A stretch of 64,000 nt of DNA from Mustelus asterias (taxonomy: Eukaryota): NCBI RefSeq assembly GCF_964213995.1, contig NC_135803.1:44578001-44642000 (forward strand). The letters run 5' to 3'. A program made the translations under genes and the position numbers. Positions 13,076 through 33,123 of the stretch are shown here, in pieces. Numbering within the stretch: the stretch's first letter is position 1; the number at the start of each line of letters is the position of its first letter. The notes beneath the pieces are model-generated. The model saw only the letters and a program-made list of their open reading frames with translations. It was not told where the DNA came from and did not search any database.

Positions 13076-16000
13076 GATCTGTATACAAAAAACGGGTGGA
13101 ACTTGAATCACACGGGGACCAATATCCTGGCCGGTAGGTTGGCTAAGGTTACTGGGGAGAATTTAAACTAGATAGGTTGGGGGGAGGGGAGCTAGAAGAG
13201 TTGACTAGGATCAAGGAACTAATTGATGGGGTGGAGGATGCAGGGGTAAGGGGAATTACAAAATTAATGGTAGAGGAGAGGGTGCAAGTGAATGAAGGCG
13301 GTAATTTAGATAAGGGAGTAGAGGGAGAGGGTGTTCGCGACTCATCAAAGCGGGTCCAGATAAAAGCTGGAATAAGGACACTTTGCCTGAATGCACGAAG
13401 CATTCGGAACAAGGTAAATGAGTTGATGGTGCAAATCAGCACGAGTGGGTACGATCTAGTGGCCATTACAGAAACGTGGCTGAAAGGTGACCAGGACTGG
13501 GAGATGAATATCCAGGGGTATCAGGCGTTTAGGAAGAATAGACAGGAAGGAAAAGGTGGTGGGGTCGCGCTATTAATAAGAGATAATATCAGGGTAGTAC
13601 TGAGGGATGACATAGGCTCTGAGGAACAAAACGTGGAATCATTATGGGTAGAGATGAGGAATAGTAGAGGGAGAAAGACACTAGTAGGTGTGGTATATAG
13701 GCCCCCAAATAATAATGTTGAGGTAGGGAGGGCTATAAACAAGCAGATAAGGGATGCGTGTAAAAACGGAACGGCAATAATCATGGGGGACTTCAACATG
13801 CACATTGACTGGCAGACTCAAGTCGGTAAGGGTGGAATGGAGGAAGAGTTCTTAGAATGCTGTCGGGATAGTTTCCTTGAACAGCATGTTACGGAACCGA
13901 CGAGGGAACGAGCTATTTTGGATCTGGTATTGTGTAACGAGGTAGGTAGAATTAAGGATCTTATTGTGAAGGACCCTCTTGGGTCTAGTGACCACAATAT
14001 GGTCGAATTTCTGATTCAGATGGAAGAGGAGAAAGTTTGGTCCCAAACCAGTGTCCTCTGTTTGAACAGAGGGAAATATGATAGGATGAGGGATGAATTG
14101 GCTAAGGTAGACTGGGAGAGCAGGCTGGCAGGTAGGATAGCTGAGGAACAGTGGAGGATTTTTAAGGAGATCCTTTTCAGTTCTCAGCAAAAATATATTC
14201 CAGCAAAAAACAAGGATTGTAAGAAAAGGGAGAACCAGCCGTGGATAACGAAGGAAATAAAGGAGAGTATTAAAATAAAAACAGCTGCGTACAGAGTGGC
14301 CAAAAATAGTGGAGAAACAAGTGATTGGGAAAAATTTAAGAAACAACAAAGAGAGACTAAGAAAGCGATAAAGAAAGGAAGGATAGACTATGAAGCTAGG
14401 CTAGCAATTAATATAAAAAATGATAGTAAAAGTTTTTATAAATATATAAAAAGGAATAGAGTGGCTAGAGTGAATGTTGGACCCTTGGAGGACGAGAGGG
14501 GGGAGTTAATAGTGGGAAATGAGGATATGGCTGAGTCTTTAAATAAGTTTTTTGTGTCGGTCTTCACGGTGGAGGACACAAATAGTTTGCCAAATATTAA
14601 CGATAGAGGGTTGGCAGCAGGAGAAATACTTAATACAATTAATGTTACCAGAGAGGCAGTGCTGGGTAGACTAATGGGACTGAAGGTGGATAAGTCCCCG
14701 GGTCCGGATGGAATGCATCCCAGGGTATTGAAAGAAATGTCAGAGGTAATAGTGGATGCGTTAGTGATTATTTATCAAAACTCGTTGCATTCTGGGGTAG
14801 TGCCGGTTGATTGGAAAACGGCTAATGTTACGCCGCTGTTTAAAAAAGGAAGGAGACAAAAGACGGGTAACTATAGGCCGGTCAGCTTAACGTCTGTAGT
14901 AGGGAAAATGCTGGAATCCATTATTAAAGAGGAGATAGCAGGGCATCTGGATAGAAATGGTTCGATCAATCAGACGCAGCATGGATTCATGAGGGGAAAG
15001 TCGTGCTTGACGAACATGTTGGATTTTTATGAAGATGGGACTAGGGCGGTTGATGGAGGAGAACCGGTGGATGCGGTGTTTTTGGATTTCCAAAAGGCGT
15101 TTGATAAGGTGCCCCATAAAAGGCTGCTGAAGAAGATTAGGGCACACGGAGTTGGGGGTAGTGTGTTAAAGTGGATTGGGGACTGGCTATCCGACAGGAA
15201 GCAAAGAGTCGGAATAAATGGGTGTTTTTCCGGTTGGAGGAAGGTAACTAGTGGCGTGCCGCAGGGATCGGTACTCGGGCCGCAACTATTTACCATTTAT
15301 ATAGATGATCTGGAGGAGGGGACGGAGTGTAGGGTAACGAAGTTTGCAGACGACACAAAGATAAGTGGAAAAGTGAATCGTGTGGAGGACGGAGAAGATC
15401 TGCAGAGAGATTTGGACAGGCTGAGTGAGTGGGCGAGGATATGGCAAATGGAGTATAACGTTGAGAAATGCGAGGTTATACACTTTGGAGGAAATAATAA
15501 CAAATGGGATTACTATCTCAATGGAAACAAATTAAAACATGCTACCGTGCAAAGGGACCTGGGGGTCCTTGTGCATGAGACGCAAAAGCCCAGTCTGCAG
15601 GTACAACAGGTGATCAAGAAGGCAAATGGGATGTTGGCCTATATTGCGAGGGGGATAGAATATAAAAGCAGGGATGTCTTGATGCACCTGTACAGGGCAT
15701 TGGTGAGGCCGCAGCTGGAATACTGTGTGCAGTATTGGTCCCCTTATATGAGGAAGGATATATTGGCATTGGAGGGAGTGCAGAGAAGGTTCACCAGGTT
15801 GATACCGGAGATGAGGGGTTTGGATTATGAGGAGAGGCTGAGGAGATTGGGTTTGTACTCGTTGGAGTTTAGAAGGATGAGGGGGGATCTTATGGAGACT
15901 TATAAGATAATGCGGGGGCTGGATAGGGTGGAGGCGGAGAGATTCTTTCCACTTAGTAAGGAAGTTAAAACTAGAGGACACAGCCTCAAAATAAAGGGGG

Positions 16001-16281
16001 GTCGGTTTAAGACAGAGTTGAGGAGGAACTTCTTCTCCCAGAGGGTGGTGAATCTCTGGAATTCTCTGCCCACTGAGGTGGTGGAGGCTACCTCGCTGAA
16101 TATGTTTAAAGCGCGGATGGATGGATTCCTGATCGGTAAGGGAATTAAGGGTTATGGGGATCAGGCGGGTAAGTGGTACTGATCCACGTCAGATCAGCCA
16201 TGATCTTATTGAATGGCGGGGCAGGCTCGAGGGGCTAGATGGCCTACTCCTGCTCCTATTTCTTATGTTCTTATGTTCTTA
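13076..16281 (+). mobile_element. CR1 LINE family A, 5'-truncated within ORF1, with intact ORF2; antisense in an ECT2 intron
   Basis: ORF1 esterase-like tail DLYTKNGWNLNHTGTNILAGRL..LN* (TAG at 13169), then ORF2, then 3' tail (TTCTTATG)n. Confidence 0.93.
13177..16182 (+). CDS. CR1 ORF2: APE endonuclease plus reverse transcriptase
   Basis: 1001-aa uninterrupted ORF. EN motifs NARS, ITETW, YRPP, MGDFN, SDH; RT motifs YRPVSLTS, QHGF, DFQKAFD, GVPQGSVLGP, FADD. The true start codon is uncertain. Confidence 0.92.
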   Translation: MGGGELEELTRIKELIDGVEDAGVRGITKLMVEERVQVNEGGNLDKGVEGEGVRDSSKRVQIKAGIRTLCLNARSIRNKVNELMVQISTSGYDLVAITETWLKGDQDWEMNIQGYQAFRKNRQEGKGGGVALLIRDNIRVVLRDDIGSEEQNVESLWVEMRNSRGRKTLVGVVYRPPNNNVEVGRAINKQIRDACKNGTAIIMGDFNMHIDWQTQVGKGGMEEEFLECCRDSFLEQHVTEPTRERAILDLVLCNEVGRIKDLIVKDPLGSSDHNMVEFLIQMEEEKVWSQTSVLCLNRGKYDRMRDELAKVDWESRLAGRIAEEQWRIFKEILFSSQQKYIPAKNKDCKKRENQPWITKEIKESIKIKTAAYRVAKNSGETSDWEKFKKQQRETKKAIKKGRIDYEARLAINIKNDSKSFYKYIKRNRVARVNVGPLEDERGELIVGNEDMAESLNKFFVSVFTVEDTNSLPNINDRGLAAGEILNTINVTREAVLGRLMGLKVDKSPGPDGMHPRVLKEMSEVIVDALVIIYQNSLHSGVVPVDWKTANVTPLFKKGRRQKTGNYRPVSLTSVVGKMLESIIKEEIAGHLDRNGSINQTQHGFMRGKSCLTNMLDFYEDGTRAVDGGEPVDAVFLDFQKAFDKVPHKRLLKKIRAHGVGGSVLKWIGDWLSDRKQRVGINGCFSGWRKVTSGVPQGSVLGPQLFTIYIDDLEEGTECRVTKFADDTKISGKVNRVEDGEDLQRDLDRLSEWARIWQMEYNVEKCEVIHFGGNNNKWDYYLNGNKLKHATVQRDLGVLVHETQKPSLQVQQVIKKANGMLAYIARGIEYKSRDVLMHLYRALVRPQLEYCVQYWSPYMRKDILALEGVQRRFTRLIPEMRGLDYEERLRRLGLYSLEFRRMRGDLMETYKIMRGLDRVEAERFFPLSKEVKTRGHSLKIKGGRFKTELRRNFFSQRVVNLWNSLPTEVVEATSLNMFKARMDGFLIGKGIKGYGDQAGKWY

Positions 16282-17130
16282 TACAAACAATAGATTTTAT
16301 AAACTGTTGTCCCAACTTGCCATTAGGCATGCTTTTTTTCCAAGTTCATCAATTTATTTAACCTTTGACATTTCAGTTAATACCAAAAAGACATAAACCA
16401 CTGGATTTGGATGCAGAATCCCCCCATTTATTGCTGAATTGCAGTTTGTGCAATTTGCATTACAAGCTCCAATAACTTATTTGGCCTTTCTTTTTGCAAC
16501 AATACAAGTTGAGGACAGGATCATGTCCAACATTGGCCCAGTTTTACACCAATAGTTAATGGAGTTATGTACCAGACCAGCAAATTGAAATAGTATCCAA
16601 AACATCTTTTAGCTGAACATCACTTACCAAATGAGCTATTTGTTTTTAAAAGTGTCATTTAAAAAAACTGGAAGTGAAGATAATTCATTGGCTAACTATA
16701 AATTAACAGTAAATTGATGATCAGATGCAGTTGGCATCAATCTAACAAAAAAGGTTAATCATTAACCTAACTCTACAATAGTCAGATAATATTGGTCAAC
16801 TTAGTGTCATGGATAAAAGAACCCGTGGACTTTTAGGTTTAGCTTATTACCAAGGCTTGCAGAACTGTCTTTGGGTAAGAACAAATTAAAATTTTCAAGC
16901 AAAACAGAAAATTAAAACCTTCCACTTTTTAAAAGAATAATTGTATGCGCTTACCAAAAATTGTTTCAGCATGTTAGGAATGTCAGGCGTTTTACTAATA
17001 AAGATGGATTATCACAGTAACAAAAGAATCAGAATTTCAAAATAAAAATTCCTTTAATAGAACACACATCACTGACACCTTACAAATGAAAAGATAATGA
17101 ACATGACAGTTTTAAACATGATGTTATTAC

Positions 17131-17207
17131 CTCCAAGGCTTTCAGAATCTGTTCAGTGTCTCCAACCTTTCCCAATAACGCAACTTTTGTTTGAATCAGA
17201 GGTGCAC
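17131..17207 (-). CDS. ECT2: ECT2 coding exon 2
   Basis: ttctag|GT...GAG|gtaata, 77 nt. Reads (S)APLIQTKVALLGKVGDTEQILKALE, similar to human PQIETRVILVQEAGKQEELIKALK; phases fit both neighbouring exons. Confidence 0.85.
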
Positions 17208-30708: not shown

Positions 30709-31721
30709 AACATAGAACATAGAACAGTACAGCACAGAACAGGCCCTTCGGCCCACGATGTTGTGCCGAGCTTTATCTGAAACCAAGATCAAGCGATCCC
30801 ACTCCCTATCATCCTGGTGTGCTCCGTGTGCCTATCCAATAATCGCTTAAATGTTCCTAAAGTGTCTGACTCCACTATCACTGCAGGCAGTCCATTCCAC
30901 ACCCCAACCACTCTCTGCGTAAAGAACCTACCTCTGATATCCTTCCTGTATCTCCCACCATGAACCCTATAGTTATGCCCCCTTGTAATAGCTCCATCCA
31001 CCCGAGGAAATAGTCTTTGAACGTTCACTCTATCTATCCCCTTCATCATTTTATAAACCTCTATTAAGTCTCCCCTCAGCCTCCTCCGCTCCAGGGAGAA
31101 CAGCCTTAGCTCCCTCAACCTTTCTTCATAAGACCTACCCTCCAAACCAGGCAGCATCCTGGTAAATCTCCTCTGCACTCTTTCCAGCGCTTCCACATCC
31201 TTCTTATAGTGAGGTGACCAGAACTGCACACAATATTCCAAATGTGGTCTCACCAAGGTCCTGTACAGTTGCAGCATAACCCCACGGCTCCTAAACTCCA
31301 ACCCCCTGTTAATAAAAGCCAACACACCATAGGCCTTCTTCACAGCTCTATCCACTTGAGTGGCAACCTTTAGAGATCTGTGGATATGGACCCCAAGATC
31401 TCTCTGTTCCTCCACAGTCTTCAGAACCCTACCTTTGACCCTGTAATCCACATTTAAATTAGTCGTACCAAAATGAATCACCTCACATTTATCAGGGTTA
31501 AACTCCATTTGCCATTTTTCAGCCCAGCTTTGCATCCTATCTATGTCTCTTTGCAGCCTACAAAAGCCCTCCACCTCATCCACTACTCCACCAATCTTGG
31601 TGTCATCAGCAAATTTACTGATCCACCCTTCAGCCCCCTCCTCTAAGTCATTAATAAAAATCACAAAGAGCAGAGGACCAAGCACTGATCCCTGTGGCAC
31701 TCTGCTAGCAACCTGCCTCCA
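30709..31721 (-). mobile_element. CR1 family B, 5'-truncated
   Basis: RT C-terminal half ending HTRMIGSGIA; tail (TTCTATG)n; near-identical to the copies at 44223 and 51125. Confidence 0.92.
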
Positions 31722-33123
31722 CTCTGTGTTTGCCATTCTGGTCTCCAGTTTCCCAATTTTAACTGCTCCTCCAACAGAGGTCATGCCGTCAGTTGCCTAG
31801 GCCCTAAGCTCCCTAAATACCTTCATCTCTTTTTCTCCTTTAAAATGCTCCTTAAAGCCTGTCTCTTTGATTACACACAACTACAAGGCTGAAAAAAATA
31901 AATAGTTTTGTCAGCTTCCATCTCAATGAGTCAGCTTCAAGCCAATCCACATTCAACAATCTGCTCTGAAAACCCTGCTCACATTTTGACAGCTGCGACA
32001 AATTCCATCACAGTAGCTGAAACAATGAACAAAACAACCTACAGCCAACAACCTTTTAAAAAAGTCAATTTGACCTATATCCCAATGTTAACTGATCCTT
32101 TAAAAAAATTCCACAATCTGACTCTGCCAAAAACGAGTCATTTCTTCCTTGGGCCATGCCCTATCTATGAACCATGTTCTGTTGAAATCTGTCCATTAAT
32201 TTTTAAGATACATTGTTTCCAGTCAAACCTACTGGGGCATTACCTCTGCTCACCTTTAATGGCGGCGTTCGAAAAAAGATTCAGGCAAATTGGTCATTAA
32301 TGGAGAAAGATTCACAAACAAAGTCACAAATTAAAAATGAGGGAGTTGGGCAAAGTAAAAAGGTCTGAGGGAAGGCCACTGAAGTAAATAGATTAAATAC
32401 ACTTCCAGTGAAGGGCAGGGATAAATCTGTGAAAAAGAGACAAGCTAATTGAATGTAATAACTTTTTCTAAAATGGCTGTGCTCTTAGCAGCCTCAAAGC
32501 AGGTAGATATTGAAATCGTTTCTTCAGAAGTAAAGAACTGTCACAGACGATGATGAGTGGTGAATTTAAACTGTAGCTATCAATTTGAGACCAGTAGCTG
32601 CACAACTGTTTCCAGCCAAATAATACCTTGCTGATACTGCCTGACTTTGCAAGTGTGAAAAATTCAACTCCCAGCAACTAAAATTTAGATTTTTATAGAA
32701 CAGGAGTGAAACTCTCTGCATTCTCATAATATAACTGCCAAGTTCAAAAAGTAATCTTGAAATCACAGAGATTCAATTCAATATCAAATAAACCACCTAG
32801 TTGGCCTCCCCTGCACAAAAAGCACTATTCAAAACCAGGTTATACAATTCACTGGAATAATATATCAGAGACACGTTGCTCGAGTACAATCAAGACCAAC
32901 TCTATATCTTCAGAATCATTTTGCAGCAACATTGCCATTTCAATATAAATACACACCAAGCCCTTCAATGTGTGTCAGTGTGATTGAATGACTGTGTTTC
33001 AGTTAACAGCTAAAGGGGAGTGAATATTTCATCCACTTATTCTGTTCAAAAGGTGCACTAACATATAGCTTTCAGATTCTGCAATTGGGCAACATATACA
33101 AATAGCTTCCCCTCTTATTATTA

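Follow-up and report, generated by a model that had tools for sequence, protein, structure and literature searches.

How LINEs translate their second open reading frame is unsettled, and the process is usually put down to reinitiation. CR1-group elements dominate the repeats of birds and reptiles, and a turtle CR1 is reportedly one with overlapping ORFs. They also account for 22-34% of shark and ray genomes according to the accessible part of PMC13343379. The closest described elements to the family studied here are the vertebrate canonical CR1 LINEs with an esterase ORF1 (type IVB, subgroup CR1_7; PMC4120745, PMC13343379); as far as they are set out in the accessible parts of these papers, the family shares with them a zinc-finger-like ORF1 N-terminus, an SGNH esterase, an ORF2 encoding APE endonuclease and reverse transcriptase, and a microsatellite 3' end; it has the same heptamer junction as their published consensus rows (PMC13343379), and differs from canonical CR1 in having lost the esterase catalytic motifs. 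Within their accessible text neither PMC4120745 nor PMC13343379 discusses ORF2 translation (the strings "translat" and "overlap" are absent from that of the latter), and CR1 is not mentioned in that of the 2016 frameshift review PMC5009743. Our literature search found no paper proposing frameshifting for CR1; the 1990s CR1 papers and the Repbase notes lay outside its scope and may mention the overlap.

Several better known systems resemble the CR1 junction in part. Retroviral gag-pol and coronavirus 1a/1b (as described in PMC5009743) have, as does CR1, a structural ORF that closes on an X_XXY_YYZ heptamer in its own frame, with the polymerase ORF in the -1 frame; the CR1 junction is unlike them in that the site is not followed by a stem-loop or pseudoknot-like fold and in that its host is a non-LTR element. 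The -2/-1 site of PRRSV nsp2, which is stimulated by nsp1beta/PCBP, has a short unstructured motif at a wild-type spacer of 10 nt (described in PMC4937337), as in CR1, whereas the PRRSV motif is C-rich and that of CR1 is G-rich, making the resemblance positional only. SART1 (described in PMC2699510) and L1 (described in PMC5009743) are, like CR1, bicistronic LINE RNAs, with low ORF2 output, and a UAAUG is present in two of 16 CR1 lineages; in contrast to both, the CR1 ORFs overlap at a slippery heptamer and most CR1 lineages have no AUG. A -1 frameshift is stated to be needed for ORF2 of the Dictyostelium elements TRE5-A and TRE3-A (PMC5911963, accessible part), and +1 shifting or reinitiation has been suggested for Paramecium LINEs (PMC5405496, likewise), so that frameshifting in non-LTR elements is not without precedent. 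TRE5-A and TRE3-A are APE-type non-LTR elements like CR1, of a different clade and host, and are likened to it here by the description in PMC5911963 only.

The CR1 copy and its ORF1/ORF2 junction

We examined a window of 64,000 nt of Mustelus asterias DNA, which contains a CR1 LINE with esterase ORF1; APE endonuclease and reverse transcriptase domains are present in its ORF2, and the SGNH esterase in the ORF1 of sister copies. Its features are:

13075..16274, + strand: member of a young CR1 LINE family, 5'-truncated (99.7% identical by blastn to the full-length copy L264 over 3200 nt)
13076..13171, + strand: end of ORF1, the last 31 codons plus stop, C-terminus of the SGNH esterase domain, ...GENLN* (from the sequence; the full ORF1 in L003 matches Lipase_GDSL_2)
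13147..16182, + strand: ORF2 frame, -1 relative to ORF1, open from stop to stop for 1011 codons, with a linker of about 68 codons ahead of the endonuclease
13162..13168, + strand: slippery heptamer U_UUA_AAC in the ORF1 frame, putative -1 shift site (from the sequence; seven of seven bases identical in 16 of 18 lineage representatives)
13169..13171, + strand: UAG, the ORF1 stop, immediately 3' of the heptamer, with UAA or UGA among other lineages
13179..13189, + strand: G-run G6-A-G4 beginning 10 nt past the heptamer, candidate stimulator (G at +11 to +13 in 16/16 TTTAAAC lineages)
13267..13269, + strand: first ORF2-frame AUG, with U at -3 and out-of-frame AUGs upstream at 13226 and 13238
13372..13995, + strand: APE-type endonuclease domain (Pfam PF03372, PF14529; weak alignment with the L1 endonuclease beginning at residue 76, E 0.7)
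14848..15495, + strand: reverse transcriptase domain (Pfam PF00078, E 8e-33)
16183..16282, + strand: 3' UTR, ending in (TTCTTATG)n repeats (from the sequence)

The microsatellite tail runs a few bases past 16274. Since the copy is 5'-truncated and starts at 13075, it retains no more of ORF1 than the last 31 codons; the complete ORF1 of the family, read from sister copies (e.g., L003), is 309 aa long with an SGNH/GDSL esterase domain. With its ORF1 start missing, the window copy itself could not express a frameshift product. There are 1729 genomic sites matching a 34-nt family pattern, and the junction sequence is identical throughout the 40 best family matches. Named homologues of the family ORF1 are from sharks, rays, reptiles, birds and one frog, those of sharks and rays being closest.

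An initial annotation had proposed a -1 ribosomal frameshift at this junction, and its reading of the letters was correct. ORF1 closes AAT TTA AAC TAG, with TTTAAAC at 13162-13168 in the ORF1 frame and TAG at 13169-13171; the -1 frame, open from 13147 to 16182, is that of ORF2, and Pfam finds both the APE endonuclease and the RT in it; the first ORF2-frame ATG, placed about 100 nt past the heptamer, is at 13267, and the GG-TT-G6-A-G4 tract noted 6 nt downstream of the heptamer is at 13175-13189. Counting both strands, the window contains TTTAAAC 25 times, and therefore only conservation can make the case for the heptamer; the motif alone is not beyond chance, and its position, frame and cross-lineage invariance are.

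Conservation of the heptamer

Copies within the genome were collected with the junction DNA as query, five divergent ORF1 protein queries and a seventh search, yielding 210 loci (209 analysable, in 191 distinct places), and the ORF1 end was located using queries minus their last six residues. TTTAAAC plus a stop closes ORF1 in 172 of the 191 places of this ORF1-similarity sample, a set in which the 30 window-family loci match by construction, having been found with the junction query. The remaining 19 places have the heptamer with a mutated stop (6), TTTAAAT plus a stop (8) or a broken junction (5); the U_UUA_AAU variant of the eight still fits X_XXY_YYZ. Seven near-identical U_UUA_AAU-UAA copies (L074, L079, L081-L083, L085, L090), on contigs of 54 kb to 1.4 Mb, probably represent segmental or satellite amplification of one decayed copy. 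Genome-wide pattern searches select for the motif itself and yield counts, not fractions: heptamer-UAR-7 nt-G5 was found at 17,133 sites, compared to 11 for the reversed control; a spacer of 13 nt between heptamer and G-run, instead of 10, was found at 78; and another base at the third position of the Leu codon at 463, scattered over many families among the 100 sites listed.

Eighteen lineage representatives were chosen as intact; they are mutually related and hence not independent. All seven heptamer bases are identical in 16 of them, at ORF1 identities down to 25%, the two exceptions being U_UUU_UUA (L192) and G_AAU_UUU (L191). The heptamer is conserved beyond coding need. Across the 16 TTTAAAC representatives (11 from this genome and 5 foreign; 25-88% identity over the last 80 residues) there is no variation in the heptamer or in the first base of the stop, unlike the type of stop and the flanking bases, which vary; the codon ahead of TTA specifies N, G, R, S, D, Y, H or F, and T is always its last base. 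Among 17 invariant degenerate ORF1 residues in the 11 lineages of this genome, a single codon is used for three, the terminal TTA and AAC included, and in the same ORF1s TTA accounts for 25 of 168 Leu codons and AAC for 26 of 65 Asn codons.

Foreign loci (22) were recovered from metagenome and GTDB contigs with a degenerate esterase pattern that ends about 26 codons before the stop; their endonucleases are 33-42% identical to that of the window, and they look like host-derived CR1s. Fourteen of their junctions read TTTAAAC-TAG, one reads TTTTAAC-TAG, and another four are broken upstream. The remaining three depart from this: in L192 a U_UUU_UUA stands three codons ahead of the stop, in L191 a G_AAU_UUU stands at the stop, and both have a -1 frame open into the endonuclease; L183 lacks a canonical heptamer, and its endonuclease is in frame 0. 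The presence of animal-type CR1 LINEs inside public bacterial genome bins and metagenome contigs (L182-L203, L234-L263; 31 matches in collection G001 alone) appears to be a sign of host DNA contamination.

The published consensus elements (supplement of PMC13343379) were covered for the first 400 nt of each, and most consensus junctions lie outside that part. Within it, 18 of the 22 listed heptamer-plus-stop matches are by eye CR1-group ORF1 ends, and rows with the heptamer junction come from alligator, crocodile, bearded dragon, bullfrog, coelacanth, bowfin, halosaur, chimaera, sharks and rays; six synonymous variants of the heptamer had no match in the CR1-labelled rows over the same 400 nt. 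When homologous ORF1 C-termini were compared as protein, 72 of 104 fitted a strict X_XXY_YYZ at the last three residues (xLN 63, QGN 8, SKN 1), against 2-17 at eleven upstream offsets, and 32 did not fit a heptamer at the stop. The QGN* endings belong to unnamed esterase ORF1 proteins (P0083, P0091, P0092, P0096-P0098, P0165, P0174) and are compatible with G_GGA_AAC; L191, the sole QGN-like locus with DNA, reads CAG GGG AAT and not the G_GGA_AAC predicted from the protein ends.

The ORF2 frame and its start codons

The endonuclease is in the -1 frame in the majority of copies in seven of eight multi-copy families (22/22, 7/10, 20/26, 43/46, 3/5, 3/5 and, for family 2, 85/109 scorable copies); the exception is the degraded L061 family (1/3). 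Read in the -1 frame, the linkers from the junction to the endonuclease (39-84 codons) are free of stops in 15 of the 16 rows scored, the other two frames always containing stops; the rows are copies chosen as intact, with L071 and L194 left out and L190 scored over a shortened linker. Of 17 readable lineages, 13 lack an ORF2-frame AUG ahead of the endonuclease, and the four that have one have it at unrelated positions. In the AUG-less lineages the first ORF2-frame Met falls inside the endonuclease domain, 14 (L190) to 133 codons past the NAR motif and beyond the Asn whose alignment to the N-terminal strand of the L1 endonuclease is weak (E 0.7); in L066/L266, the nearest endonuclease relative sampled (68%), it is 77 codons past the motif.

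For the window family, two out-of-frame AUGs (13226, 13238) precede the ORF2-frame AUG at 13267, which is kept in 98 of 100 listed sites. A UAAUG overlapping the ORF1 stop in the ORF2 frame is found in 2 of 16 lineages (L065, L096), the window family not among them; the other 14 have GAT, GTT, ATT, ATA or GAA at this place. The TURBS motif UGGGA, which sits 40-90 nt upstream in the systems covered by the accessible part of PMC3542737, had no conserved place in that range across the lineages.

The proposed fusion of ORF1 to ORF2 thus gains support at the level of lineages, from a heptamer identical in 16 of 18, two other sites of slippery type, and the 13 of 17 readable lineages with no AUG before the endonuclease. 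The annotation had suggested weighing conservation of heptamer and frame against that of the AUG. This comparison favours the shift across lineages; the window family does not discriminate, its best-scoring copies being identical at the junction and its AUG kept in all but two of the listed sites; and in family 2, on its face, the frame varies and the AUG hardly does, the outcome that the annotation had named as counting against a shift.

Copies departing from the pattern

From family 2, which has a G10 run and a downstream AUG, 110 copies were taken and 109 were readable; the heptamer is present in 109/109 and the AUG in 108/109, and 24/109 are out of the -1 frame, mostly via G-run length. 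The run lengths have a single sharp in-frame mode (79 copies) with smooth tails, as slippage or read error in inserted copies would give; in-frame G13 (5) is not enriched over G12 (6), and the distribution does not demonstrate selection on the length of the G-run. The frame variation is tentatively attributed to such slippage or read error in the G10 run.

One copy, L037 (G000:C71:6613369-6617283), has ORF1 and ORF2 in a single frame of 1280 codons, via loss of the stop and a G11 run. A propagating sub-lineage of this type was rejected: the stop-lost form accounts for 6 copies vs 2400; the six all lie on one strand, and the G-runs in the five that were read measure 10, 10, 11, 11 and 12, which points to independent changes or errors. 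The junction was without joint or indel in four contig sets, which are silent on expression.

The G-run and the search for a stimulator

G occupies +11 to +13 in all 16 TTTAAAC lineages and +14 and +15 in 15 of them; some of these are third bases of ORF2-frame codons (CAG, TTG or GGG, then GGG in 15/16), and GGG makes up 151 of 445 ORF2 Gly codons. Downstream folds of the 18 representatives were no better than shuffles (z -1.4 to +1.3) and the consensus fold was empty, with an energy of about 0, in a region poor in C and under a model that leaves pseudoknots aside; a local hairpin as stimulator was rejected on the shuffle test and the consensus fold. A stem-loop of the canonical viral type was not found 5-9 nt downstream of the heptamer. 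As there is no stem-loop or pseudoknot-like stimulator, shift efficiency could be low.

The G-quadruplex put forward in the annotation as stimulator did not hold up as a conserved feature, the three-tier motif being present in 0/18 representatives and a two-tier fold being predicted in 5/18, including the window family; quadruplexes that stimulate frameshifting have four G3 tracts and an optimal spacer of 6-8 nt (PMC3919603, accessible part). Searching 13 extended copies for a long-range partner of the G-run gave no conserved C-run and no consistent best duplex site; a pyrimidine-rich arm of the 3' UTR was often among the top five sites, which is expected of any G-run. What is conserved is a G-run at a fixed 10-nt spacer without a conserved fold, and this matches the layout of the protein-stimulated PRRSV type. 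By analogy with that type, the G-run may be the binding site of a trans-acting protein that pauses the ribosome, either ORF1p or a host G-run binder, a reading we put forward tentatively.

How ORF2 may be expressed

In full-length elements of this CR1 group U_UUA_AAC followed by a stop closes ORF1, and the frame one base back from the heptamer is that of ORF2, so programmed -1 ribosomal frameshifting probably yields ORF2 as part of an ORF1-ORF2 fusion. On mammalian ribosomes few heptamers are as prone to shifting as U_UUA_AAC (PMC5009743, accessible part). In a minority of ribosomes two tRNAs would slip back together by one base on the heptamer; most would terminate at the ORF1 stop, giving a high ratio of ORF1p to fusion, as in gag-pol; and the minor product in the window family would be a predicted fusion of 1313 aa (309 + 1004 residues). 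A protein bound to the G-run (ORF1p or a host G-run binder) might pause the ribosome at the heptamer. The Pfam scan of the window CR1 contained no protease domain that could release the enzyme.

It is unlikely that ORF2 is instead reached by termination and reinitiation, with a restart at a codon, AUG or not, overlapping or near the ORF1 stop and with the heptamer and G-run as part of the reinitiation signal. SART1 is described as using UAAUG (PMC2699510) and L1 ORF2 is thought to use AUG-independent initiation (PMC5009743), the UAAUG of L065 and L096 is in the ORF2 frame, and nearly every family 2 copy (108/109) keeps its AUG; however, the other 14 lineages have one of five different codons at that position, UGGGA has no conserved place upstream, and both the in-frame X_XXY_YYZ and its replacement by U_UUU_UUA are left unexplained. 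That the heptamer is a by-product of protein constraint on an ORF1 ending in LN, with ORF2 started at its first in-frame AUG (13267) by scanning or internal entry, would agree with the strong conservation of LN* and with the retention of this AUG in the listed window-family sites, and is nonetheless very improbable: no representative uses the synonymous L and N codons, only 463 scattered sites have another Leu third base compared to 17,133 genome-wide, two out-of-frame AUGs lie ahead of 13267, and the first Met of L066/L266 lies 77 codons past NAR.

The frames might also be joined in the RNA, either through an extra base from polymerase slippage at the heptamer or through a splice to the AG within the stop. 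A one-base insertion at the heptamer gives the same fusion; the runs within the heptamer are just three bases long, though, and lineages with UAA or UGA have no AG at the stop, which rules out a splice acceptor there, so that we regard joining of this kind as the least probable of the readings considered.

If -1 frameshifting is true, the CR1 enzyme would be an ORF1-ORF2 fusion made at a fixed ratio, the AUG-less ORF2s would be explained, the annotation and assay of intact CR1 copies would change, and the junction would offer a natural -1 site without a structural stimulator. A broader proposal is a good deal more doubtful: that the LINE group which dominates in non-mammalian vertebrates, together with its distant relatives in animals, makes a Gag-Pol-like RT fusion via an ancient -1 cassette of heptamer, adjacent stop and G-run at +11, and that the stimulator is a protein bound to the G-run, possibly ORF1p acting as feedback, instead of an RNA structure.

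Other observations on the family and the window

The esterase motifs of the window family are altered (NGWN vs DGLH in relatives, and GTAD vs GTND in most; window 13076-13110 and L003:668-1594), and the esterase is likely inactive, despite more than 1700 young copies. The full-length family copy L264 is closest in ORF1 to L270 (69%), with about 33% in the endonuclease, L270 being a degraded copy; it is closest in endonuclease and RT to L266 (68% and 73%), with 54% in ORF1. This suggests that the family may be a mosaic formed by recombination in the linker past the G-run. CR1-like ORF2 fragments of other families are present in the window at 11538-12553 (-), 30789-31796 (-), 44305-48108 (-), 49166-50254 (+) and 51203-51877 (-).
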